Source: Azolla caroliniana (lineage: Eukaryota > Plantae > Polypodiophyta). Taken from it: a stretch of DNA of 64,000 bases. The notes below the pieces were generated by a model. That model searched no databases and had not been told where the DNA came from. It was given only the letters and a program-made list of their open reading frames with translations. Location of the stretch: positions 1,054,001-1,118,000 of the forward strand of contig JBHGNT010000018.1 in the NCBI GenBank assembly GCA_043228905.1, in the 5' to 3' direction. Of the stretch, positions 3,370-64,000 are shown piece by piece; the first letter of the stretch is position 1; each line of letters opens with the position of its first letter. The position numbers were made by a program, and so were the translations under genes.

Positions 3370-4207
3370 TATATATCTGTTGGTTTGGTGGCCATATCTC
3401 TCTCTCCCCCCCCCCCCCCCCCAATTGGACATGGAAACACACATAGATATGGCCATATGTGGCTGGCTAGCCATGGGCACGGTTTCGGCCCGAACCGAAC
3501 CGAACCGTTAAGCCATCGTTTAACGGTTTATTGGTTCCAAAATTTTTAATGCTTTGGTGGCCATCTCTCTCTCTCTCTCTCCCCGATTGGACATGGAAAC
3601 ACATAGATAGGCATGGCCATATGTAGCGATGGGCACAATTTTGGCTCGAACCGAACCGTTAAGCCATGGTTTAACAGTTTATTGGTTCCAAAAAATTTAA
3701 TGGTTTGGTGGCCATCGTTCTCTCTCTCTCTCTCTCTCTCTCCCCCCAATTGGACATGGAAACACATAGATAGGCATGCCCATATGTAGCGATGGGCACA
3801 GTTTCAGCTTGAACCGAACCGTTAACCCATGGTTTAACGATTTATTGGTTCCAAAAAAAATTAATGGTTTGGTTTGGTTTGGTTTGGATTTTCGAACAAC
3901 ATTCGGTTTCGTTCTAAAACTCAGGTTTATAGGTTTGGTTAAAGGTTTATAGGTTTTTGGTTAACTTTTTTTTTACCTTAATAGTTTATTAATTTAATGG
4001 TTTAATTAATGATTTTTTATTGATTGAATTAATTTAACTTAAGTGTTTATTTAATTTAATGGTTCAATTAAAGTTTCTTTTATTGATTTAATAAATTTAA
4101 CTTAATATATTTTTGTTTATTTAGTTTGATTTAAATGGTTAGGTTTAAATTTTTTATTAAATGAATCGATTTGGTTTCAACTTTTCCTTGAAGGGTTTGG
4201 TTTGGTG

Positions 4208-4737: not shown

Positions 4738-5399
4738 CCATGAAAACAACTCTCAGCCTTTGCCAACAACACCTTTGCTACGACGTGATTCCATGAAAAC
4801 AACTCTCCGCCTTTGCCAACAACACCTTTGGAGATGTTGATTCAACTAAAGCTGCTCAATGCCATTGGCTCCTTACTCTATGGAAAGCTACTCCACTTAT
4901 GTCCTTGACACAACATAAACTTTGTGGCACTCACAACCATCAAGATGGTAGTTCCCTCCACTAAACACTTGAGAATCACGACAATGTAAATTACTTCATA
5001 CTAATCAATGGATACTCTATACAAAAATAACAGTAATGAATAAAATTGCACAGCTCGATTTCGCACCACCATGAAAACAACTCTCAGCCTTTGCCAACAA
5101 CACCTTTGCTACGACGTGATTCCATGAAAACAACTCTCCGCCTTTGCCAACAACACCTTTGGAGATGTTGATTCAACTAAAGCTGCTCAATGCCATTGGC
5201 TCCTTACTCTATGGAAAGCTACTCCACTTATGTCCTTGACACAACGTAAACTTTGTGGCACTCACAACCATCAAGATGGTAGTTCCCTCCACTGAACACT
5301 TGAGAATCACGACAATGTAAATTACTTCATACTAATCAATGGATACTCTATACAAAAATAACAGTAATGAATAAAATTGCACAGCTCGAATTCGCACCA
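4738..5399. repeat. Tandem duplication, 2 x 331 bp, each unit opening with an internal ~53-bp repeat
   Basis: 4738-5068 and 5069-5399 align, with three substitutions seen by eye; CCA at the unit junctions. Confidence 0.95.
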
Positions 5400-10785: not shown

Positions 10786-12878
10786 TGCCACTCTATGTAT
10801 TCTCTTAAGAGAATCTGAAGTCAAAAGCATGTGGGAACCTCCATGACAATGCTATATAACCCCGAATTTTGACCCTTATTAACTTTTCGGGATCTTGTAT
10901 ACAATATCACAAGAAGTGATAGAGATCTATTTGTACTCTTCTATGAAATCTACTTATTTGCAATGCCCCTTGTAGCTCCCAATATCTCAAGGTTTAGTAT
11001 GTAGTGATGATTGCTGAATGCTATTGAAAAGCAGGATATGTGTGTGTGGCTATTTGATAATGAGTTTTGGATGCACAATGTGAGATGGAGATTCATCAAA
11101 AATGTATTAAAAATTCGATTTATGTTTTGAGCTTTGTGGATTTGTGCGATTGCTGAGGTGCCCCAAAATGTCATTCTCTCATTGTCCCCTTGTTAAGATG
11201 GTAAGCCAAGTTTTCCGAACTTGTGCACTTAGGGTTGAATGCTTTACTACTTTACTAGAAACCAATACATAATGTAGGGGTTGAATGCTTCATCATCTCA
11301 AAACTACAATAATTTGGATTCTCTCGTGATGTTGCTCCTACCTTGTAGTGAAGACAATCATGCCATACTCGTTTGATGATTCTTGAAGAGGAATACGAAA
11401 GGATTTGATGCGAATTGATTGTTGCTAAAAAAAGAACGAACGATATATTAATGGGTGTCATCTTCTTACCAAGAGACATGAGGTTGATCCATACTAGTTT
11501 GTTTTCTAGGTTGATAATATTAGCTTGGATCAGTCTATCCTTTTCCACTTTGGTCATGTTTAGATGGGGACAATCCAAGCTATCGGAATTCCTTTACATT
11601 GCACTTGTGCTTATGCCATGTAACTCGAATCATCAATGAATACCTCCATGTTCAATTTCTTTTGATGACCAAATGCCAACATTGAGTACCTTCATTTAGG
11701 GAGCTACCAAAGTTATTACTATTAGATATCGGTCATTGATTAGAATAATGCTTGAGTGATTGTTGGGTCTACTCCCATCTTTGCTTGTATTATGCATAGG
11801 CCATTGATTACTTGCACCCTATCATGTGAACGGTCTCTCTAAATCTTTCCAATTATTTTCCTTGTTAAGACACTCCCTAGGTTTCTACTACATAGAGAAG
11901 AGTTGGTGTGAGACAAGTGTATCAAATGGGCACAATTTAGTTCATGGCCCTTGGAACTACAAATGTGCACATTTTCGTTCAAGAGCATCATGGGTTGCAT
12001 ATCCAGAAGAAAATCAGCCGCAAGCAACCTCACATGCTAAGTATTTCCTATACATTTCATTGGCACCAACAATTATTTGAAAGACGAATCTTCTATTTCC
12101 GCATGTGAAAAAGGTCAAACAAATGCACACAAGTTGTAAAAATGTAAAAAAGCTAATGAATTAGTTCCTCTCACATGTGCTTCTCATTCTCTAGCTTCTT
12201 TTCACAATTGGATGACACTTAACTTCTCGCTTCTTCTTCTTTTCACAATTGGATTACACTTAACTAAATATATTGACCCCCTCCAAATCACTATCATCCT
12301 ATTTAGATTAAGCCATGGCTCTTAACATGTTGACAACCTAGGGAATAAAATTGGCATTCCAATGACGATAAGCCAAAGGTTTCCAACATTGAAATCATCA
12401 CAACAAACTACATCTTAATCTCCTTATATGTTTGTGCACTCCCACTCGAGCATCTTAAATGAATATGTTTCACATCCTCGTAGCATGCCATAGACTCCAA
12501 TACCTCAAAAACTGAAACACAACTTCAAAGTCTCGCGAAACTGTAAGAGAGTCTGACTTGCGGAATTTCCATTGGAAAGCAAATTTTGACCTCCTTGTTG
12601 TGGATTCCCTAACTCTGGATACATACGTCCATATTGATCTCAACATGGGCAAGTGACAAATGTGTGCACACTATGCTCCAATACCATTATAGAAAAATCT
12701 AATGTCCAACAACAACTTTTCTCCTCCTTAATTAATTGCCTATGGCGACTTGCCCCTTCCAAAATTCTCAAATAAAAACATGAGCATGAAATGGAAGTTT
12801 GAGATCTTTACATCCTAACTTTACTGAAATGGAAGTTTGAGATCTTTATTTACATCCTAACTTTATTGCTTGCTTCCA

Positions 12879-13205
12879 ACACATGATGGGTTTGTTAAAA
12901 CCCCATTTTTTTTTGGATAAAACCCTCTGTGGCGTCCAATCTCATTCGGATATGTATGTATGTATGTATGTATGTAGGGAAGTGGACGGACAACGGCATA
13001 GTGTGAAAGCGGCCAAATGGCCCTAGTGTGTTAAACCCCCATGTCAACACGTGATGGGTTTGTTAAAACCCCATTTTTTGGATAAAACCCTATGTGGCGT
13101 CCAATCTCGTTTGGAAATGTATGTATGCATGCATGCATGTATTATGTATGTATGTATATAGAGAAGTGGACGGACATTGGCATAGTGTGAAAGCGGCCAA
13201 ATGGC
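12879..13205 (+). repeat. Two ~145-165-bp tandem copies upstream of the VOC gene; a separate ~37-bp doublet at 12788-12866
   Basis: TGATGGGTTTGTTAAAACCCCATTTT..GTGGCGTCCAATCTC..GTGGACGGACA..GGCATAGTGTGAAAGCGGCCAAATGGC occurs twice. Confidence 0.9.
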
Positions 13206-13416
13206 TGTGGTGTGAAAACGTCCAAATGGGGGGCGTGATGGGTCTGCTGTTGGGTCACGTGGAGTATCTGCTGCTGCTATGAAGGTTTTAGTAAGAGAAG
13301 AGACTAGAAAGAGGGAGTAGAAGAGCTTGAAACAAGAGATTAGTGCCCTGATTAGATCAGATGAGAGTGATTAGGGAGTGGTTTAAGGATCACTCGTGAA
13401 GAAGAATTTAAACAAA

Positions 13417-15861: not shown

Positions 15862-16825
15862 TTTCAAAAAGAAAGTGAGAAGATCGATGAAGGGTCATCA
15901 AGGTTTTCTTATGACATGTCTAAGAATATTCGTGGAAGTCTTTCGTCGAAAGTCGTGTACATACAACATATTATGCCATATGATTGGTTCACCAAGAACA
16001 TGTTCTCAACTTGAATAAAGAAAGTATGAGATAAATTTGGGGAACCATAGGAATTCCAATATAGGTTTACATTAAATGATAGTGCGAAAATTGTGTTTTT
16101 TTCAAATTTTCAACGTTTTCAATGAATTGTGGATAATTTAGCTTCTCGTATAGGTGATGGAATTTCTTTAATTTGGCTTGGTTTGGCTTGAAATACAAAA
16201 GTAACTTCACATCACATTGATGACAAACTATAAGAAATCCACATTGGTGACAAACTATAAGAAAACCCTAAACCCTAAAGTATTGACAATGCGTTAAGTT
16301 ACTTAGATATGGAGGTCGTAATTAGAAATGAACGTGGCAGTGTCCAATTGAAGAATCTCTTTGATGGTGCTAGGTCTCCTCTTTTGATTGTTATTCATTG
16401 CCCATCTTAAATTGTTTTTTCTTGTGTTTGATGTTTCCGTATGGCTGATAATCATGATATTTTGGTGGTGATCCATAGATTGAATGTGATTCTCTATGTT
16501 GACAAATTCCATATTCTCATTCTATGTGGATCGTCATTTGATTCCTTTTGCTATTTAAGAGTTATCTGAAAATGGCATTTGCAATCCACAATAAAGGTTT
16601 ATCCATATAAAGTAGAGCATTGAAAAAGTCTAAGAAATGCATTGTCAATACACTTCTGCATTGGATTTATTAAAAATTTAAGTAGATGTCATTGATTATA
16701 GTAGCCATAACTCCTAACTTCGTGATTCACAAGAACAATCTTTCCTTAAGTTAAATGAAAAATCATAATGTTTTGGCATAGAATGGCATTACGGGTCTTT
16801 GTCCATGTTCACACCCTACGTGTGA

Positions 16826-16972
16826 TGCATCCTGACCTACTTTTATGATTTCAACATGGTGGAAGTTCCTATGATTTTGGGCTAGGATTTAGGATTTTAT
16901 GCATCCTGGCCTACTTTTATGATTTCGACAAGGTGGAAGTTCTTATGATTTTGGGCTAGGATTTAGGATTTT
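16826..16972. repeat. Tandem doublet of ~73 bp
   Basis: ATGCATCCTG.CCTACTTTTATGATTTC..GGTGGAAGTTC..ATGATTTTGGGCTAGGATTTAGGATTTT occurs twice. Confidence 0.9.
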
Positions 16973-23757: not shown

Positions 23758-23996
23758 CATTCACAATCATTTCTGCCTCACGATGTTAATACAATCAACC
23801 AAGACGCCTACTTGTGCCTCTTATCCCTTTTTGTTGGCTCGTTTCCACTCCTTTAGCTTGTGTGGAGATCCTGTGGCACATTCACAATCATTTGTGCCTT
23901 GCGATGTTAATACAATCAACCCAAAACGCCTACTTGTGCCTCTTGTCCCTTTTGTTGGCTCGTTTCCACTCCTTTAGCTTGTGTGGAGATCCTGCA
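23758..23996. repeat. Tandem doublet of ~121 bp
   Basis: CATTCACAATCATTT..GATGTTAATACAATCAACC..GCCTACTTGTGCCTCTT..GTTTCCACTCCTTTAGCTTGTGTGGAGATCCTG occurs twice. Confidence 0.9.
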
Positions 23997-52281: not shown

Positions 52282-53192
52282 CTTTTCTTTTGAAATTTGG
52301 ATATGAGAGGAAGAAGTTATGAGCTTTTTTATCTGCCTTGCTATTTTTGCATTTTCTTTTTCTTTTTTCTGCTTTTTCTACGTTTGAAAAACGCCTCTAA
52401 CTTTATATCCATCAAGTTCCTTCCTCCGTTAATACTTGATCCTTTCATATTGTGCTTTATTCTTATACACCTTAACATCCAATGTATTTGCCAAGGTCTT
52501 TTCTTATGAGCAAAAATTGACTTCACAATTAGCAACTTCCCTAAGCAATAGAGCGTTAATGATTTCAGATCTCATAGTCCACCCGCCCATGATTCCATGA
52601 AGTATGTTGGCTTGATCTTGTATTGGCAATGGCATAAACCGTTGTCGTGGAGAAAACCGTCCCTAGGAGGAATCGATGGATAGTGTGCGTTGTTCGAGGT
52701 ATTCCTCGCAGATGCGTGGAATGAGGCGGGACCTCGGGGGTCCTGTACCGAAGAGCAAGAGAGAAAGGAGAAGAGACCCACTACGTGCGAGCGTAGATTC
52801 ACAGGGACACGGCCCTTCGACACAAAGACGCGAGTGGGACAGCGACACAGAGAGACACAAATGTATGTATGTATTAACAAAGACAAAACAACAAAAAGCA
52901 CAAAGTCGGTTACAACCAAACAGGCCGGCGAACAGATGCCGATGCCTGTTCGCAAACGCTCAGAAAGGAAGGAGTAGGTTGGAGGTGCTGCCAGAAGCAC
53001 TCGGGCATTCCTCAGAGCAGCGCGAGCCTCACGAAACCTGCACAGAAAGAAGCTACGGAGAGTATGGAAGAGAGAGAAGCCTTCGACCGACAGCCCGACA
53101 GCACTTCGTCCTCTCTGATTCTGCGATCCCCCCCCTCTTCCTCGTCTCCCTCCTTTTTATAGGCAAGAAGGGAGCCGTTTCCTATTAACTTC

Positions 53193-56100
53193 TGTAAGGA
53201 ATAGACCCTTCTATTCACCTTCTTCACTCTGCCACAACCGAGTAAGCGCGAATCGATGGAGCAGAAAATAGGAACCACACGGAGAAACAAAAAAACGCGA
53301 GTACACAGGGATTAACGTGGAAAACCCTAGACGGGAAAAACCACGGGAGTACAAGACTCCAAACCAACACTATACAGAGAAGTATACAATGGCGAGCTGC
53401 AAGGCGACGACCTTGAGCTCGCTGTCCTCGCCACAGGCGGCGGAAATACACAGAGGCGTCTACCTCTTCCTCTCTCGCGCTCTATCTCTCTCACGGCTGC
53501 TCTCTCTTCACTCCTCTAAAGTGGAAAAACAGAAAAAATGAGAAGCAACAGTAAAACTGTTTGCCCTAAGTCATATTTATACTTATATGACTTTGGGCTA
53601 TTTACAATTGTAGCCTCAGGGGCCCATAGCGAACATATTCACGGATATGTCCCTGCATCCGGATCGCTCTCCGGGTACATTCGTCATCCGGTACCGAAAC
53701 CGGGGTCTTTGTCATCCGGATCCGAAACCGAAACCGGGCTTGTCGGCATTCATCTCCGATATCCGACCATCCCATCCGAAGGGACCGTAATCCCAACAAA
53801 CTCCCCCTTCACTTCGGCATGGGATGTCTCTCCAATCCGATCCTCTTCCGGCATGCTTCCAGCTTGTCGGGTGTGAGCACCTTGGTCAACATATCCGACC
53901 CGTTCTCGTCCGTGTGGATCTTTGTCAGCACGAACTCCTTGTCTTCTATCCTTTCCCGGATCCAGTGATATCTTCGCTGGATGTGCTTCGTCCGGGAGTG
54001 ATAGGCCGCGTTCTTCGCAAGGTGGATTGCACTCTGACTGTCGCAGTAGAGTCGGTACTCCTCCTGTTGGATACCGAGCTCTCTAATGAAGTCCTTCATC
54101 CATATTATTTCCTTGCCGGCTTCAACAGCCGCCATGTACTCCGCCTCCGTGGTTGACAACGCAACCGTCTTCTGCAGCCTCGACTGCCAGGAAACAGCTC
54201 CCCCTGCATACGTCATCACATACCCTGATGTGGACCGGCTGGTATCTGCATCAGCCGACATATCCGAATCGGTAAAGCCGTCGAGTTCGGGCTTTCCGGA
54301 GCCGAATCGGAGGCACACGTTTGCCGTGCCCTTCAGGTATCGGAGTATCCACTTGGCCGCGTTCCAATGCTCTTTGCCGGGATTGCTCATGTACCGGCTC
54401 ACCACTTCGACTGCATATCCGATGTCCGGTCTCGTACACACCATGGCGTACATCAAGCTCCCGACAGCTGAGGCATACGGTACTTTCATCATATCCTCCT
54501 TTTCAGCCTTTGTCTTGGGACTTTGCTTGCTGGACAGCTTGCAGTTTGTCGGGAGGGTCGATCCGACCGGTCTTGCTTCCGACATGTTGAACCGGTGAAG
54601 CACCTTCGTCACGTACTTCTCCTGTGACAGCCACAACTGCTTCTTCTTCCGGTCCCGGATGATGTGCATCCCTAGTATTTGCCTCGCCGGACCCAGGTCC
54701 TTCATTGAGAAGGTTCGGTGAAGAGCCTTCTTCAGCATCCGTATCTTGACCTGATCCCGTCCGACGATCAACATGTCGTCCACGTACAGGAGGAGTATTA
54801 GAGAGTCTCCTTCTTCGAACTTCTTCACAAACACGCAGTGGTCGGACTGCGTTTTGAGGTACCCTTCGTCGGTCATGAAGGAGTCGAACTTCCGGTACCA
54901 TTGCCGGGGAGCCTGCTTCAGTCCGTAAAGGCTCTTCTTCAACCGGCATACCAGGTGCTCCTTCCCTTTCTTCTCGAATCCTTCCGGTTGCTGCATGTAG
55001 ATCTCTTCTTCGAGGTCACCGTGAAGGAATGCCGTCTTCACGTCCATCTGTTCTACCTCGAGGTCCATGCTTGCCGCTATGCTCAGCACCGTTCGGATGG
55101 AGGTCATCTTCACTACCGGAGCAAATATCTCGTCGAAGTCGACGCCCTTCTTCTGCTGAAACCCCTTCACCACGATCCTGGCTTTGTATCTCGGGGGGTT
55201 TCCGGCATCTCCCGGTTTTAGCTTGAACACCCACTTGTTTCGAAGTGCCCGCTTTCCTTTCGGCAACTCCACAAGTTCATATGTGTGGTTCTCATGCAGG
55301 GAATCCATCTCGTCCTGCATGGCACTCAACCACCTGCGGCTCTGGGTGTCATGCTTTGCTTCTTCAAAGCTCTCCGGCTCCCCCTCGTCGGTTAGCAGCA
55401 CGTGCTCTGGTTCCGGAAATCTCCGGGGGGCCCTTCTCTCTCTTAGAGGATATCTCCGTTCCGGAGCTTCGGTAACCGGTTCTTCCGATTCTTCTTCATC
55501 CGAATCCATTTCGGGATCGGGGCCGGTTCCGGTATCATTTTCGTCTTCTTCGGCCGGTTCGGTTTCTTCACCGTCTTCGGCCGGATCCTCGAGTGCTAAC
55601 CGGTCCCTTGCCGGTCGGGACTGCTCCTCGTAGAGTTTATCCTCACCGGTTGACTTGGAGCTCTTCATCTTCTTCTCCGACTCCCAATCGGCGAGTGTCT
55701 TGTCCTCCATGAAGATGATGTCTCGACTCCTGAATATCTTCTTGTCAACCGGGTCCCATACTCGGTAGCCGAACTCGTCGTCGCCGTATCCGAGGAATAT
55801 GCATGGCCGGGTCTTTGGATCTAGCTTTCCTCTCCGGTCCTTTGCCACATGCACGTATGCGAGACACCCGAACACCTTCAGATGCCGGTAGGATACTTCC
55901 CTACCGGTCCACACTCTCTGCGGCGTGTCTCCGTCCAAAGGTACTGAGGGTGATCTGTTTATCACGTATGTCGCCGTCGACATCGCCTCAGCCCAAAAAC
56001 CCTTGGGTAATTCCGCCTGCGCCAGCATACTCCGGACCCTCTCCATTATGGTCCGGTTCATCCTCTCGGCCAGCCCGTTCAGTTCCGGCATCTTCGGCAC

Positions 56101-58518
56101 AGTAAACTCGAGTCGGATTCCCTTCGAGCGACAGTACTCCTGGAACTGCCCCCGGTATTCCCCTCCGTTATCCGCTCGTATCGCTTTCAGCTTCTTGCCG
56201 GATTCCCTTTCCACTCTCGCGTGGAGTTCTTTGAAGACGCACAACACTTGGTCCTTTGTCTTCATCGGTGCCGTCCACAGCTTCCGGCTGTGGTCATCAA
56301 TGAATGTCACGAAGTACTGGGCTCCGCCATGTGACTTCGTTTCTACTTGACACACATCAGTGTGTACCAACTCCAATGGTACACTACGTCTCTTCGGTGG
56401 CCTTGAGTGGAAGGAGGCTCGGTTCTGCTTACCGGCCAGGCAATCGGTGCACTTCTCCAGGTGCACGTGCTTCACTGGAATAAGGTTGTCTTCTGCAAGC
56501 CTCTTCATCCCCTTCTCACTCATGTGGCACAGTCTTTTGTGCCACAGCTCACCGGCAGTGTCGGCTGCCACATTCAGCTCTTCCGGACATAACCAGGCAT
56601 TCATCAGGTACAATGTGTTGACCTTCCGGGCCCGAGCCACTATCAAGCTCCCCTTGCTGAACTTCATGACACCGTTCCGGATGCTACCCGTGTAGCCTTC
56701 ATCATCTAGCCTCCCGGCCGAAATCAGGTTCAGTCGGACCTCCGGAACGTGTCGGACATTCTTCAGCAGCATTTTGCATCCGGTCGGGGTTGTCAACCAC
56801 ACGTCTCCTATGCCGGCAATCCGGCACGTACCTTCGTTTCCCATCCGAACACAGCCATGCTCGCCGGCTGTGTAGGATGAGAAGTATCTTCTCTCCGGGG
56901 TCAGGTGGAACGATGCTCCGGAATCGACCACCCAGGTCGTCTCATCGCCGACAATGTTTAGTTCACCTTCTTTGGTGATGAGCATGATCTCCTCTTCACT
57001 TGCCGCGAGTGCCGTCGTTCCTTTCCGGTCCTGTCCTCGCCGATCCGAACCATTTCGGTCCGTGGCTCCCCGGTATGCACCGTTTCTCTCCGGTGACTTC
57101 TTCGAATCGGTGTTGTCGGTTCCATTGTCCTTTCGGTAATGCCGACAATTCTTTCGGAAGTGCCCGGGCTTCCCACAGTGGAAGCATGTGGGCCTTCCTC
57201 TTGACTGCGACCGGGTCCCCGACTTCTCCCGTCTTTGCGGACTCCGGTTCCATTGTCTTCCCCGATCCGATTCGGTAAACAACATCTTCGGGTCGGAGGC
57301 CGGTTCCTTATCTCTCCGACGCGCTTCTTCATTCAAAATACTTGTCTTTACCGTTTGTAAGGACAAGTTATCTTCGGCGCAGGAGGTGCTGAGAGTTACC
57401 ACCAAGTTCTCCCAGCTTTCCGGCAATGTACACATCAGGATGATGGCTTGCATTGCATCCTCCAACGGGAACTTGATCGCCGCAAGCTGATTCACGAATC
57501 CCATGAACGTGCTTACGTGTTCCACCATACTCTCGCCATCCCGGTACTTGAGATTCACTATCTTCCTCATCAGGGAGGTTCGGTTCAACGCATTCTTCCT
57601 CTCATAGAGGCCCGACAGCTTCCGCCACATCTCATATGCGTTGGTGTCGTTCGCCACATGTTGTAGAACGCTCACGTCGACGTATTGCCGAATGGTTGCA
57701 ACGGCTTTCCGGTTCAGAAGCCTCCATTCCGACTCAAGTACCCCCTTCGGTATTTCCGACCTGTCAATCGGTTCGTACAGGTCCCGAACAATCAGAAGAT
57801 CCTCCATCTTGATCTTCCAGTCGGCGTAATTCTGTGCATTCAGCACCATCATCCCCGGCTGCCCGCTGCCGCCGCCTTCCATTTTCTGCAGCAGTTCGCT
57901 CTGATACCAGTTTGTAAGGAATAGACCCTTCTATTCACCTTCTTCACTCTGCCACAACCGAGTAAGCGCGAATCGATGGAGCAGAAAATAGGAACCACAC
58001 GGAGAAACAAAAAAACGCGAGTACACAGGGATTAACGTGGAAAACCCTAGACGGGAAAAACCACGGGAGTACAAGACTCCAAACCAACACTATACAGAGA
58101 AGTATACAATGGCGAGCTGCAAGGCGACGACCTTGAGCTCGCTGTCCTCGCCACAGGCGGCGGAAATACACAGAGGCGTCTACCTCTTCCTCTCTCGCGC
58201 TCTATCTCTCTCACGACTGCTCTCTCTTCACTCCTCTAAAGTGGAAAAACAGAAAAAATGAGAAGCAACAGTAAAACTGTTTGCCCTAAGTCATATTTAT
58301 ACTTATATGACTTTGGGCTATTTACAACTGTAGCCTCAGGGGCCCATAGCGAACATATTCACGGATATGTCCCTGCATCCGGATCGCTCTCCGGGTACAT
58401 TCGTCATCCGGTACCGAAACCGGGGTCTTCGTCATCCGGATCCGAAACCGAAACCGGGCTTGTCGGCATTCATCTCCGATATCCGACCATCCCATCCGAA
58501 GGGACCGTAATCCCAACA
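53193..58518 (-). mobile_element. Full-length young Ty1/Copia retrotransposon (Tnt1/Tto1-like), 5326 bp
   Basis: LTRs 53193-53798 and 57913-58518 (606 bp, TG..CA, 3 transitions); TSD ACTTC at 53188-53192 and 58519-58523; tRNA-iMet PBS TGGTATCAGAGC at 57909-57898; PPT AGTGAAGGGGGAG at 53813-53801. Confidence 0.98.
53809..57882 (-). CDS. Copia Gag-Pol polyprotein, 1357 aa, uninterrupted
   Basis: CFHCGKPGHFRKNC knuckle, WVVDSGASFH protease, LWHKRLCH..CTDC, VHTD/ADNGGEY/AERMNR integrase, QMDVKTAFLHG and YVDDML RT, FTDSD/TEAEY/CDSQ/DMLTK RNase H. Confidence 0.98.
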   Translation of the reverse strand: MEGGGSGQPGMMVLNAQNYADWKIKMEDLLIVRDLYEPIDRSEIPKGVLESEWRLLNRKAVATIRQYVDVSVLQHVANDTNAYEMWRKLSGLYERKNALNRTSLMRKIVNLKYRDGESMVEHVSTFMGFVNQLAAIKFPLEDAMQAIILMCTLPESWENLVVTLSTSCAEDNLSLQTVKTSILNEEARRRDKEPASDPKMLFTESDRGRQWNRSPQRREKSGTRSQSRGRPTCFHCGKPGHFRKNCRHYRKDNGTDNTDSKKSPERNGAYRGATDRNGSDRRGQDRKGTTALAASEEEIMLITKEGELNIVGDETTWVVDSGASFHLTPERRYFSSYTAGEHGCVRMGNEGTCRIAGIGDVWLTTPTGCKMLLKNVRHVPEVRLNLISAGRLDDEGYTGSIRNGVMKFSKGSLIVARARKVNTLYLMNAWLCPEELNVAADTAGELWHKRLCHMSEKGMKRLAEDNLIPVKHVHLEKCTDCLAGKQNRASFHSRPPKRRSVPLELVHTDVCQVETKSHGGAQYFVTFIDDHSRKLWTAPMKTKDQVLCVFKELHARVERESGKKLKAIRADNGGEYRGQFQEYCRSKGIRLEFTVPKMPELNGLAERMNRTIMERVRSMLAQAELPKGFWAEAMSTATYVINRSPSVPLDGDTPQRVWTGREVSYRHLKVFGCLAYVHVAKDRRGKLDPKTRPCIFLGYGDDEFGYRVWDPVDKKIFRSRDIIFMEDKTLADWESEKKMKSSKSTGEDKLYEEQSRPARDRLALEDPAEDGEETEPAEEDENDTGTGPDPEMDSDEEESEEPVTEAPERRYPLRERRAPRRFPEPEHVLLTDEGEPESFEEAKHDTQSRRWLSAMQDEMDSLHENHTYELVELPKGKRALRNKWVFKLKPGDAGNPPRYKARIVVKGFQQKKGVDFDEIFAPVVKMTSIRTVLSIAASMDLEVEQMDVKTAFLHGDLEEEIYMQQPEGFEKKGKEHLVCRLKKSLYGLKQAPRQWYRKFDSFMTDEGYLKTQSDHCVFVKKFEEGDSLILLLYVDDMLIVGRDQVKIRMLKKALHRTFSMKDLGPARQILGMHIIRDRKKKQLWLSQEKYVTKVLHRFNMSEARPVGSTLPTNCKLSSKQSPKTKAEKEDMMKVPYASAVGSLMYAMVCTRPDIGYAVEVVSRYMSNPGKEHWNAAKWILRYLKGTANVCLRFGSGKPELDGFTDSDMSADADTSRSTSGYVMTYAGGAVSWQSRLQKTVALSTTEAEYMAAVEAGKEIIWMKDFIRELGIQQEEYRLYCDSQSAIHLAKNAAYHSRTKHIQRRYHWIRERIEDKEFVLTKIHTDENGSDMLTKVLTPDKLEACRKRIGLERHPMPK

Positions 58519-58717
58519 ACTTCCTACCTACCGAATCTACCTACCTAGGATCTTCTATGTACAACATAAGGCGCACGTGCATGAAGAGCCGGTTCCTACG
58601 CTCCGGTGCACCGATTCCGCTTGTGGACGGTTTTCTTCACGACATCTGCCCCCACCTAACCGCGCATCCACCGGCATGCGCCAAATTGAGTTGGGACGGA
58701 GAAAACCGGTCCAGCCT

Positions 58718-61700
58718 TCATTCCCCGCCCGTCGGTTCTTCCTCGGTTTCGGATCGTTCGTCGTCGCGGTCCAGGTCAACCGGATTCGGCTCGTCGTCGT
58801 GACGCTTCTTGAACGCTTTGATCCGCTTCCCAGCTACCGGTATCGCCATTCTCGTGCCGTCGAGTTCCGCCAGATGGTACGTCTCGTTGTCGTTGGCGCT
58901 TTGTACCACGTAAGGCCCGAACCACCTTCTTGCGAACTTCCGTGTCGCTCGGTGCTGGTTGTCGAGGCTGCTGTCGTAGACTAGCACCCAGTCGCCTTCC
59001 TCGATCTTCTTCGGTCGGAGCCGGTGCGTCCGGTCGAACCGGGCTTTGTTCCTCGTCCTTGCCACCCGAAGCTTTTCCGTAACCTGCTCCACGTCCTCCG
59101 GTCTCCGCTCGAGCTGCCGTATGCGCGCCGTCAACAGTTCCTCCCGGCTCATCTCGTCTCTCCAGTCCACGGTTGCCCATGAGGAGATCGTACGTTCCAT
59201 CGGCATGATCGGCTTCTGCCCAAACATGAGCTCTGCCGGCATGAATCCGGTTACCGAACTGTGCGTAGTTCGGTCCGCCCACAACGCGTAAGGCAACAGC
59301 CGCGGCCAGTTCCCGACTTGACCCCCGCATGCCCGAACTAACGCCTTGACGATCGGTCCGTGTCCGCGCTCCACCTTCCCATTTGCCTCCGGATTGTATG
59401 CAGTGGTGAGCGAGAGCTTGACTCCTAGCCGGTCGAACAGCTCCTCGGCCTCTTCGGCGTCCAACTCCCCGCGATCAGCCACGATCTTCCCGACGCACCC
59501 GTACCGGCATATCACGTCCTCAATCAGGAACCGACATACGGCTGCAGTCGTTTTGTTCTAAAGGGCCCGGCCTTCCACCTGGTTCATTAGATCTTCCCGA
59601 GCCAGGACCAGGTACCGCATCTGTCCTACTCCCATCGGCATCGTCACCAGATCTACCATCCATTTGAAGTGGATGGTCGGAGGGTACGTAGGGTGAAGCT
59701 CGTCCCGATGTCGGACTATGGAGTGCATCTGACAGCTCTCGCAAGTTGTCACGAACCGATGCACGTCCCGGTACAGTCCCGGCCACCAGTACTTCCCCTT
59801 TATCTTCTCGAACGTGGCCCACGTTCCACGGTGACCAGCCCAAGGGCTGTCGTGGTAAGCCGTCAGCAGCTCCTCCTGTTCTTCCTTCATCGCCACCACC
59901 CGGAGCGGGACGCCGTTCCTCTTCTTCGGGTGCTTCCATAAGTATCCATCCCTGAGAAAGAATCGGTAAGCTTTCTTCCGGATCCGGTTGGCCTCGTCCT
60001 TCGTCCATGACGCATCCGGCGTCATTGTCCTCAAAAATCCACCGATCTGGAGCCACTCGCCATCGTACTTGCTCTCGTCGAAGTCGTTAAGTGCCGGAGT
60101 GCTCGTCCCATCGGTCGTCACATACGCCGCCTCGAAGAAGTCCACGCCGACTTCTTCGTCCTCCGAAACCATGCCACCCTCGTTATCAAACCTCGCCCTC
60201 GAAAGCATGTCGGCCATGGCGTTGTCCTTTCCGGAAATGTGTCGTATTTCCGGGTCCAGGGACTTGATGTACGCTATCCACCTGAGCATCGCCAGGTTCG
60301 GTGTCGCGCATCTGGAAACCATGCCGAGAATTGGCAGGCAATCCGTCTCGATAATCACTTCTGTCCCGATCAGGTAGTCTTTGTCGGCCTTTACTGCCGA
60401 AACGATACCCCAGAGTTCGCGTTTAACCTGGGCGTACCCTCGCTGTCGCTCACTGAGGACCTTCGCGCCGAATCGGATCAGGAACCGAATGCCGTCCTCG
60501 TCTTCTTGGTTGACGACCCATTCGATCACGGTCGGACTCGTATCCACCGTTATGTATACCGGGGTACCCTTCTCGTAGACAGCCTTCCGGAGCGCCGTTG
60601 CTGCCGCAAGAGCTTCCTTCAGTTTCCGGACTGACTCCGTGTGCTCGTCTTGCCACTCGAATTTTCGCCCCTTCTTCAGCAACCCGTATAGCGGCTCCGC
60701 AACGTGGGCGTAATGCGGGATCCATATGTGGTAGAATGCGCATGCCCCCAGGAACCTCCGAACTTCCGTAACCGAGCTACAGTCGGTCTTCATCGCGGAG
60801 ATGGCTTCTACCTTTGCCGGAGACGGCTTCAGGCCATATGGTCCACATAGGTGTCCGACCACCAGGATTTCTGATTGCCCGAAGGCCGATTTCTCCCCGG
60901 AGAAGGTGAGCCTCGCATCCTCTAGCCTTTGTAGCACCTTCTCGCAGTTGTCGATGTGTGTTGCCACGAATCGCCGGCATCCGTCCGGCCCGACTGTCTC
61001 GTCCTTCTCTTCCACCGGGCACCCCTTTATCGGGATGTCGTCCAGAAATGGCATGGTGATGTCCGAGATGCAATCCCTCAGTACCTTGTTCATTGCATTC
61101 ACCATGTGGGCCACCGAGTTGGTCCCTCCTTGTGGCAGGGTACACATTCGCACTAGGCCGAGGGGAATTCGCATCGTCGTAATGTCTCTGCTCTCCACGG
61201 CTAGCTGGAACTGGTCGTACCCCGAGTACAGATCACCGACCGAGTAAATCGACCTTCCGGCGAAGGCCTCCGCGAACTCGTCTATGGTCGGTCTGATTCC
61301 TGCGTTCCGAATGGTCACTCTGTTGACCGGCTGCAAGTCTTGAATGAAGCGCAATGTTCCGTTTTTCTTTGGTACGGTAAACCATCGGTTCGAGTATGGG
61401 GCACTCGACGGTTCGAGAATGCCCATATCGACTTTCTGCCTCAATAGCTCCATCAACTTCGGGATGTGAGCTCTCGGTACTGGAATCAGCTTGAGATTCC
61501 ACGACACATGCGGTACCGTGAATATCACCATCGGCTCCACGATTGTCGGGTCTACGCACCCGATCTCTTCCGGTGAGAATGCGAAGGCTTTCCCGTGCCT
61601 TCCGAGCATTCTCCGAAACCGGTCTTCCTCCGCCGGCAGTAGGAACCCGCCCCCACCGATTTTGAGCTCCCGGAGCGTCCCGTCGGTGAAGGTGTGTCCT

Positions 61701-62221
61701 ATGCAGACCGGATCTCGCAAACTGGGGTCCGACGCAACCCCTCTGATTCAGGACTCGCTGCCCTCCGGTAAGGGTGCTGCGACTGGCCTTACCTTCCGGT
61801 CCATAGTCTTGTACTTCGTGCAAACCCGGGCCGTCCGATCCGACCCGAGCCCCTGACTGAAGTTCGCGATGACTTCGTACATCTCTTCGGAACATACCGG
61901 TATCGTTTGGTCTTCGTTAAGGTCTTCTCCGGCTACCTCCCTCAACATTCCCAAGGTGTCGTCGAAGGAGACCGCCTCCACGGCTCCGCTGATTTCCTCG
62001 TCCGGGCCGAGAACTCCGCACGCTCGAAGTCGCACTTCCGCCCTTGTCTTTTCTCGGCCAACGATGCCGACTATCATACACCCTCCGTTGTTGGAGAAGC
62101 AAAATTTCCTACCTATCGTACAGGGTTCCTTCGGTTTCGGTTCTATTGTACAATCGTGGGGTCTTTCCCGAGTGTCCGGGCTGTCTCGGCCCCACGCCTT
62201 GGCAGCCCTCTCTAAAAATCC
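58718..62221 (-). pseudogene. Gypsy pol (RT-RNaseH-integrase) in the -1 frame relative to gag-PR, with premature stops at 61750-61748 (TGA) and 59560-59558 (TAG)
   Basis: ORFs 61748-62077, 59558-61720 and 58718-59515 share one frame; hand translation shows it stays open upstream of 62077 through the gag-PR stop. Confidence 0.88.
62168..62221 (-). promoter_or_regulatory. Candidate -1 programmed ribosomal frameshift signal (slippery heptamer plus pseudoknot)
   Basis: G GAU UUU (62221-62215) then UAG, 6-nt spacer, stem 1 GGGCUG (62208-62203)/CAGCCC (62183-62178), stem 2 CCGAG (62189-62185)/CUCGG (62172-62168). Confidence 0.75.
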
Positions 62222-64000
62222 TCCCGGTTCTCGCCACCGAGGGATTCGCGGTTTCGCTCGTGGTTCGGCCGCACCATCAGAAATTGGACCGAATGGCGCC
62301 CATCCTGGCTTTTGACCCTCGCGTAGGCCGAACCGTTGTCCAGCACCTTGGTCTCCATTCGCACCGCCGTGATGTATGGTTCCCCTAATATGACCGGGTG
62401 CAAGGACGTCTCCTGTACAAAGAAGTGCTGGTCAATCTCGATGTCGCCGATCTTGACTCGCACGTTCGGGCAGGCCCCGTGCAATTCCTCGGTGGCGCGC
62501 GTCGCCGCCCGTATCTTCCACCCGTGCTTGGTGTTGATCGGCCACTTTCCCTTCTTATAGAAGTCCATGGACATCAGGTTTATTTCCGAACCGTGGTCCA
62601 CCAATGCCACCACCGGTTCCTGAACATCTCCGATCTTTACCGGGGTCTCCGTGGTCGCTCGGGCCCAGTGTGGCCTCGAATAGTGGCTCTCCGCCCACTC
62701 ATCTTCTAGCGCCAAGTCGTCGATGTGCGTCGTCCGCACCTCCACCGGTCTTTCCGGTTCCGTCTCCGTCGACAGCCTCTTCCGCTTCACCAAGTCCACA
62801 ATGGAGTCGTGGAACTCCTTCTTGGCGATCCCTAGCACCTCCCGCAATGACAGCTCCACTTTGCTATCGAGGATCCGTTCTTCTAGGACCTTTCGTAGGT
62901 CCGTGGTCCTTTCTATTTCCGTCCCTAGTCGGTATCCGCCCTTCTTGGGGTTATCTTGCGCGCTGGACCCACCGGCTTCGTTTCGTCGTTGCCCGAATCG
63001 GGTCTCGTATCGTTGTGAGGGCCCGGCCGCTCCGGCTTTCCCCACTCGTTTGTCTTCTACCAGAGCCTCGTAGTTCCGGCAGGCGGCTTCTACGAAGCCC
63101 ATCTTTTCCTCGACCGGGTCGCTCCACCCGGTTATTTCCGGGACCCGTCTCTCAGCGCGGTCCGTTTCATCTTTCCTCAGCCGTGCGCCGGCGAGACCTT
63201 CCAGCATTGCCGACCAGAATCCTTCTTTGCCCTCCTTTCGGGCCTCGCTGCCCCCGACCCGAATGCCGGCCGACGCCGAGTAGTGGATGGCCTCCACGTG
63301 TCGGGCCGCTGCCTCTTCCATCAGTCTCTTCATACGTCATCGCCCGTCGTTCCGGTTTAGGGCCCTTCTGGTATCGCCGGCGTGCACCCGGCCTTCCCAT
63401 AGGTACACCACCCGGTTCCTCAACGCCTCTACGAAATCGCCGCAGTCCTTCCGAATGTGGCCGACCTCATCGCACCACATGCACTTGTTCCCTGCTACCG
63501 GACGTCGGTCACGAGCCGGTTCGCCGCCTTCCCTTCGAGTCTGGGCGATCTGGAGATCCTTTATCGCCCGCATCAACTCCTCCAGCGCTCCTCCTCCGGA
63601 CGAGTCATTGACCATGCCGGTCGGAGCCGAACCGGTTTCGAGCCACTCCCGGGTCTCTTCCCTTCGCCCTTGTGGTGCCGGTTCAAGCCTCCTTGCTGTG
63701 ATAGAGCCCGCTTCGGTCGCCCCGTTGTCAGCCCATTCTCGCCGTTTGTCGAAACGGCCACAGACTCTCTTAACCGTCGTCCAGTCGGTCGTCCGCCCGT
63801 CTTCTGTTTCTAGCAAGGAGCCGACTTGATCCCGGTCCTGCTCGTCCACCGACTTGACGAACAGTTGGACCCGGCTCGTATCCAGAACGGTTCGGTCAAG
63901 CGCCGAAAGGCGCGCAAAGTGTTCCTCAAACTCCTGGAGGAGTGCCGACGCATTTCTTCCCTTGCCGGGGGACTCCACCCATTCCATGAAGTTCCGTTTC
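62212..64000 (-). pseudogene. Gypsy gag-protease frame with one premature TGA at 63339-63337
   Basis: ORFs 63337-63987 and 62212-63333 are in the same frame, separated by GGG CGA TGA CGT ATG. Confidence 0.85.

Follow-up and report, generated by a model that had tools for sequence, protein, structure and literature searches.

In alpharetroviruses the protease (PR) lies in gag, before the frameshift, and a stop codon stands directly behind the slippery heptamer. Expression of gag-pol in these viruses (RSV/ALV) involves one -1 shift and a pseudoknot with a long stem (PMC3835772), and in the beta- and deltaretroviruses (MMTV, HTLV) the pro-pol shift takes place between the protease and the reverse transcriptase (RT), as the second of two shifts (PMC3835772). 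The heptamer GGAUUUU has been tested in plant viruses and serves there as a -1 site (PMC3111606, PMC5009743). For plant elements, the survey of Gao et al. (2003), as related in a 2016 review (PMC5009743), reports +1-frame overlaps only. The plant non-chromoviruses Ogre and Retand separate GAG-PROT from RT-RH-INT, the former by an intron and the latter by a single in-frame stop, and Tcn1 and Selgy have overlapping frames located ahead of the protease (PMC6317226). The Phygy lineage is characterized by a 4-bp NCGN target duplication, a tRNA-Trp primer site, absence of a chromodomain and a short element (Neumann et al., 2019, PMC6317226); in that classification it is recorded from Physcomitrella only, with a length of 7.7-10.0 kb and its ORF organisation given as 'ND'.

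The window analysed here, a stretch of 64,000 nucleotides of Azolla caroliniana DNA, carries on its minus strand a Gypsy element in which the Gag-PR frame ends GAG GAU UUU UAG at a point where pol is open in the -1 frame (Table 1). An overlap of this kind had been proposed at this place by an earlier sequence-only reading and is confirmed, and all the parts listed in that reading lie at the positions given for them. In the window copy the -1 frame runs uninterrupted from 62431 to 61751, passing through the heptamer, and the long AUG-free stretch of pol noticed before does exist, although the first pol-frame AUG is found at codon 49 after the heptamer (index 48) and not at about 45 codons. The protease motif LVDHGSE is located 128 codons 5' of the ORF1 stop; upstream of the junction Pfam recovered DUF4100 and, weakly, an aspartyl protease, and downstream of it RT, RNase H and an integrase zinc finger. 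This copy is dead, as it contains three in-frame stops (Table 1) that are absent from other copies. A search of Rfam with the junction (up to E 5) and a search of PDB with ORF1 gave no match, and no relatives were found among the viral contigs searched.

Table 1. Features of the PR/RT junction and of the element that carries it, in window coordinates.
Feature	Position	Strand	Remarks
ORF1: Gag, DUF4100, aspartyl protease (motif ~62598)	62212..64000	-	extends past the window; private stop 63339-63337
pol, -1 frame: ~130-codon linker, RT, RNase H, integrase	58718..62221	-	private stops 61750-61748 and 59560-59558
Slippery heptamer G GAU UUU (GGATTTT)	62215..62221	-	in phase with the Gag-PR frame; confirmed
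Stop TAG of the Gag-PR frame	62212..62214	-	abuts the heptamer
Spacer TAGAGA, 6 nt, stop included	62209..62214	-	from family alignment and window letters
Stem 1, 5' arm: GGGCUG plus extension to 8 positions in the family register	62201..62208	-	columns 26-33 paired
Stem 1, 3' arm: CAGCCC plus A62184 and G62185 in the extended register	62178..62185	-	
Conserved stem 2, 5' arm CGUGGGG	62190..62196	-	from family comparison
Conserved stem 2, 3' arm CCCCACG	62155..62161	-	16 nt 3' of stem 1; beyond the interval of the sequence-only reading
Stem 2 of the sequence-only reading: CCGAG 62189-62185 with CUCGG 62172-62168	62168..62189	-	present only in the window family; unconserved
3' LTR of the Gypsy element	52691..58644	-	split by a Copia element, ~53193-58518; ~98% identical to the 5' LTR just past the window edge
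Sister-type loci L053, L134, L142, L168-L170, L173-L183			own genome and metagenome contigs

The junction very probably represents a programmed -1 ribosomal frameshift signal of a Phygy-type Gypsy element, the slippage itself being deduced from comparative evidence. Layout, phase, heptamer, stop, spacer and both stems, the latter with compensatory changes, are conserved, and the programmed site formerly placed between protease and RT is supported. Where the ORFs overlap, a heptamer of the X XXY YYZ type, in its accepted variant G GAU UUU, stands in the zero frame; it is followed by a spacer of 6 nt, within the range of 5-9 nt, and by a covarying 3' structure, and the downstream ORF lies in the -1 frame with no conserved start of its own.

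Based on its target-site and primer features, the element is likely a Phygy-type Gypsy retrotransposon. Four full copies examined have LTRs of ~630 bp and 4-bp NCGN target duplications (CCGG, GCGC, CCGG, and ACGG), the window copy showing ACGA/ACGC with one mismatch, and in all four the primer binding site is complementary to the 3' end of host tRNA-Trp genes, a match that was found at 3/3 tRNA loci scanned. The Pfam domain order is that of Gypsy, the C-terminus of the integrase consists of an SH3-like region and an acidic tail, and a chromodomain sought by Pfam in the integrase region gave no hit. The element shares with the Phygy lineage the NCGN duplication, the tRNA-Trp primer site and the lack of a chromodomain; its copies measure ~6.9 kb LTR to LTR, slightly under the 7.7-10.0 kb of Physcomitrella Phygy. 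The nearest named homologues are Physcomitrium proteins, and other named ones come from Riccia and Adiantum.

In the genome the 19-mer GGATTTTTAGAGAGGGCTG has 872 exact occurrences, against 0 for its reversed control. Of 3237 candidate nearest copies 40 were scored and 30 fetched, and none of these 30 shows an indel over 131 nt. In total 158 loci were scored, comprising the 30 near copies, 48 loci found in the genome by a protein search, and the best 80 of 191 metagenome loci, 77 of which belong to one accession series; all loci are related and the counts are not independent events. For 141 loci with a downstream pol match (17 further loci were unscored), pol is in the -1 frame in 123, in the +1/-2 frame in 13 and in frame 0 with intervening stops in 5. 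PR and RT in one frame, the arrangement which according to the sequence-only reading would betray a private indel, was looked for and found in 0 of the 141 scorable loci as a single open frame. A GG-N-UUU-Y heptamer is present in the correct phase at the end of ORF1 in 146/158 loci, whereas the other 12 are mutated at single positions, have indels close by, are truncated or were wrongly anchored; the third codon positions are fixed (GAU, UUU/UUC, and the preceding G) whereas the 12 upstream bases vary freely.

The 145 of 158 loci that bear a GG-N-UUU-N heptamer were clustered at 85% identity into 33 families, among which the invariance of the heptamer is partly the result of this selection. 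ORF1 stop usage in these families is TAG in 16, TAA in 13 and TGA in 4. Thirty-one families are of the -1 type; in 28 of them no stop interrupts the -1 frame for 80 codons, and frames 0 and -2 are closed in 31/31. No conserved AUG or splice AG was detected at the junction across the 33 families. The three other in-frame stops of the window copy would suit a dead element in which a 1-nt indel, private or fixed in the family, mimics recoding; the probability of this explanation is negligible, as the phase is the same in 30/30 near copies and in 28 diverged families, the stop, spacer and stems are kept with covariation, and recently inserted copies (LTRs 99-100% identical) retain the same layouts. 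Slippage of the transcribing polymerase or of the reverse transcriptase on the U run, which has five U in most families, could also add a base. This is extremely unlikely considering that the GGAUUUC families (L136, L141) have three U only, that the length of the run is invariant in the 30 near copies, and that the conserved G-G-A and the downstream pseudoknot suit ribosomes.

The structure downstream of the heptamer was examined in the same families. In a MAFFT alignment the heptamer, spacer and hairpin are free of gaps in 31/31 -1-type clusters, in agreement with the 6-nt spacer proposed from the window copy, and a free search recovered this register in 30/31 -1-type families; one extra outer pair of stem 1, leaving a 5-nt spacer, is possible in 10/31. 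Stem 1, first drawn as GGGCUG/CAGCCC, covaries across the 33 families and is longer than the 6 bp then assigned to it, as columns 26-33 are each paired in 30-32/33 families and the stem reaches 12 pairs in some. Over 12 pairs, 82% of the cells are paired, vs 26-38% in slid controls, with 0/500 shuffles as high, and two-sided changes affect 10 pairs and 52 cells (33 families). Aligning family copies, the check suggested together with the original proposal, has upheld the heptamer (146/158 loci) as well as covariation in stem 1. One pair of this stem is a C-A mismatch in the window family, and folding of the single sequence yields competing hairpins. The unpaired junction A at 62184, taken before as an MMTV-type wedge, was rejected, since its column is paired in 31/33 families, mostly opposite U, and lies inside stem 1.

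The second stem had been drawn as CCGAG/CUCGG. This complementarity exists in the window copy, where 5 nt separate CAGCCC from CUCGG, but is not conserved and fails the comparative test, with a background level of 34-44% of the cells paired over 33 families and full pairing in 1/33 at the best register (permutation P = 0.33). In the stem 2 that is conserved, a G-rich segment of the loop pairs with a C-rich segment located 11-16 nt past stem 1; 181/198 cells are paired, and pairing is incomplete in 13/33 families. When each family was scored with its own partner the value was 497, vs 445 ± 8 with swapped partners, with 0/10,000 permutations as high and P of 0.33-0.93 for three control pairings, bearing in mind that the register is the best fit per sequence and that kinship among sequences inflates such permutation tests. 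Compensations in distant families include CAAGG/CCUUG, GCGAGA/UCUCGC, and GAGGGU/ACCCUC. In the window copy the duplex energy of the conserved stem 2 is -12.5 kcal/mol, vs -6.1 kcal/mol for the stem drawn originally.

The signal is also apparent at the protein level. Of 240 homologous proteins fetched 173 could be anchored, and their C-termini are DF-stop in 93, DF/GF plus five residues in 34, NF/GF in 6 and VF plus a few residues in 6; the remaining ones are long-tailed (24, some of them fused to RT) or of other type or cut (10). A residue whose codons are unable to end in G never precedes DF (0/93, vs a background of 33% in the same tails), in line with the preceding G that G GAU UUY requires. 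In L141, L156, and L162, as in Physcomitrium and Adiantum proteins, the ORF1 stop comes five codons later, within stem 1 (DF-x-x-x-P-L-stop), and the spacer and knot are unchanged. The 24 long-tailed proteins were all predicted as gene models in annotated genomes, and their tails vary between models; judged at the protein level, these tails probably stem from introns invented by gene predictors. Among 102 new, distant representatives of 50% clusters, 25 were anchored and 17 of these have no DF-type end, many looking like decayed or spliced models; the lineage signal applies to the closer relatives sampled.

Gene models from Riccia and Physcomitrium bridge the junction, which together with the intron that Ogre has at that place (PMC6317226) and the acceptor-like UUUUUAG could indicate that Pol is expressed by splicing between PR and RT. 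However, AG is found right behind the U run in only 14/33 families and the stop is TAA or TGA in 17, the -1 frame reads through the supposed intron and encodes a conserved peptide there, and splicing leaves the fixed heptamer, spacer and pseudoknot unexplained, so that it is very improbable. A spliced junction of the Ogre type was rejected, given that the frames overlap, the -1 frame is open and the AG is unconserved. In RNA evidence covering assembled contigs (4 of 10 listed runs), one contig of a recorded metatranscriptome spans the junction ungapped and no intron-ended joint crosses it; assembled contigs can show neither expression nor absence of splicing, so this observation is not counted as support.

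Alternatively, Pol might be produced by reinitiation or internal entry, the structure being an entry or packaging signal. Conserved RNA structures of retroelements are known to have other roles, and a pol-frame AUG precedes RT in 32/33 families; nevertheless, the first AUG lies anywhere between codons 6 and 111, no stop closes the frame 5' of it, and the structure lies at a fixed distance from a known slippery heptamer, which makes an origin of this kind highly unlikely.

In the favoured mechanism, a programmed -1 shift, most ribosomes would terminate at the UAG behind the protease and a minority would slip back one base on G GAU UUU to produce Gag-PR-RT-RH-IN. The tRNA-Asp and tRNA-Phe would slip in tandem, with E-D-F-L-E-R as the predicted junction peptide. 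The conserved pseudoknot downstream, with a stem 1 of 8 to 12 bp and a stem 2 of 5 to 8 bp, would fold on the translated RNA and pause or push the ribosome, and the expected outcome is abundant Gag-PR and scarce Gag-PR-Pol.

As in the alpharetroviruses, with their protease in Gag, a single -1 shift with a pseudoknot would be used; the alpharetroviral heptamer is A AAU UUA, with stems of 13 + 8 bp and long loops, in contrast to G GAU UUU and a compact knot of ~54 nt in the plant Gypsy element. The mechanism is already known, in an alpharetrovirus-like layout, and its use in Phygy-type elements was not found in print. For a shift placed after the protease, the alpharetroviruses provide a precedent. 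The pro-pol shift of beta- and deltaretroviruses provides another, located between protease and RT as here (PMC3835772), but it is the second of two shifts, whereas the present element has Gag and PR in one frame. The wedge-A knot of MMTV belongs to the gag-pro signal, and this feature is not conserved in the element. That GGAUUUU is the shift site of RCNMV was correctly stated in the sequence-only reading and holds for PEMV as well (PMC3111606, PMC5009743). RCNMV and PEMV-2 share with the element the identical heptamer, the plant ribosomes and a nearby stop; they are RNA viruses whose described stimulators are hairpins and long-range pairing, unlike the local two-stem knot found here. The cut point is the same as in Ogre and Retand, with overlapping frames and a shift signal in place of an intron or an in-frame stop, and it differs from that of Tcn1 and Selgy, whose overlaps precede the protease (PMC6317226).

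No published description of this PR/RT signal was found in the open-access literature, and it appears to be as undescribed as had been supposed; a mention of the overlap could exist in subscription papers, in Repbase notes or in two large supplements of PMC6317226. The accessible part of the Ylt1 paper contains nothing on the PR/RT junction, and a paper on Physcomitrium expression leaves frames and Phygy unmentioned. The layout reported here would fill the ORF organisation listed as 'ND' for Phygy (PMC6317226) and would give plant retrotransposons a well-defined -1 signal, as a third route, besides the Ogre intron and the Retand stop, to cut expression between protease and RT. The existence of three routes at one cut point points to selection, acting repeatedly, for roughly one protease per Gag. 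In addition, dozens of natural variants of one compact pseudoknot constitute a ready covariation and reporter series, and the signal would explain the invented introns and truncated proteins that gene predictors report in these elements.

The sequence-only reading identified the site but overlooked its conservation across the lineage as well as the existence of sister families in which pol lies in another frame. Two sister clusters have AG GUU UUU, a 5-nt spacer, pol in the -2/+1 frame and a closed -1 frame, and contain the same knot, with compensatory changes, one base nearer the heptamer. The sister motif has 98 exact copies in this genome; AG GUU UUU with pol in -2/+1 and -1 closed was observed in 10/10 loci and in 9/10 further loci (some overlap between the sets), the exception being due to a downstream indel. 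The peptide encoded in the -2/+1 frame resembles that of the -1 families. Two sister-type copies have 100% identical LTRs, and identical LTRs suggest that sister and -1 families have both been recently active in one genome.

The sister families probably shift -2, by means of the same pseudoknot placed one base closer. AG GUU UUU is the -2/-1 site of arteriviruses (PMC7618472), and the arterivirus nsp2TF shift has in common with the sister families an immediate stop in the -1 frame, as seen in L053, where this frame stops at once; in arteriviruses, however, no RNA structure takes part and nsp1-beta and PCBP are needed, whereas the sister families have a covarying pseudoknot at 5 nt. On engineered mRNAs shorter spacers favour -2 (PMC3458567), the direction expected from a knot one base closer, an argument that is weakened because the loss of one base itself changes the frame. 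A +1 shift (on UUU G or UUU U ahead of UAG) is the other way to reach pol and seems rather unlikely on this evidence; the frame data are blind to +1 vs -2, and spacer length alone is indecisive given that 10/31 -1 families can also leave 5 nt. Because both family types coexist in one genome and have recently been active there, a natural pair is available for testing the spacer-length model of -1 vs -2 shifting.

It is quite plausible that one ancient pseudoknot-driven PR/RT frameshift operates in Phygy-type elements of mosses, liverworts and ferns (the three groups sampled), and that some branches, possibly repeatedly, passed from -1 to -2 by losing a spacer base, with G GAU UUU becoming G GUU UUU. 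If true, this retroelement -2 frameshift would be driven solely by RNA structure and would put the mRNA-tension model of shift direction to a natural test. In a protease tree (101/143 rows after de-duplication, quick method) VF-ending proteins occupy two or more positions, one moss-like and one in Riccia; that the -2 type arose repeatedly can be taken as no more than a lead, as the Riccia VF proteins are known here as protein only. In P0179, P0226 and P0236 of Riccia, and likewise in P0048, the ORF1 product terminates with VF and a few further residues, like that of the -2/+1 families, but these proteins sit on a different branch of this tree, which makes an independent switch possible.

Some observations concern the genomic surroundings of these elements. 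The Copia element inside the Gypsy 3' LTR (window 53193-58518) is young, with an open frame of 1373 codons, LTRs 99.5% identical and a 5-bp duplication ACTTC, and the family copies L031-L035 are frequently nested in or adjacent to other Gypsy and Copia elements. At G000:C8:17796786-17823371 (spaced ~1.2 kb) and G000:C16:4989495-5105657, sequences matching the 3' end of tRNA-Trp are clustered in tandem and are probable tRNA gene arrays. Tandem duplications are found in the window at 3381-3873, 4738-5399, 12877-13214, 16825-16972, and 23758-23994, including one 331-bp pair at 99% identity.
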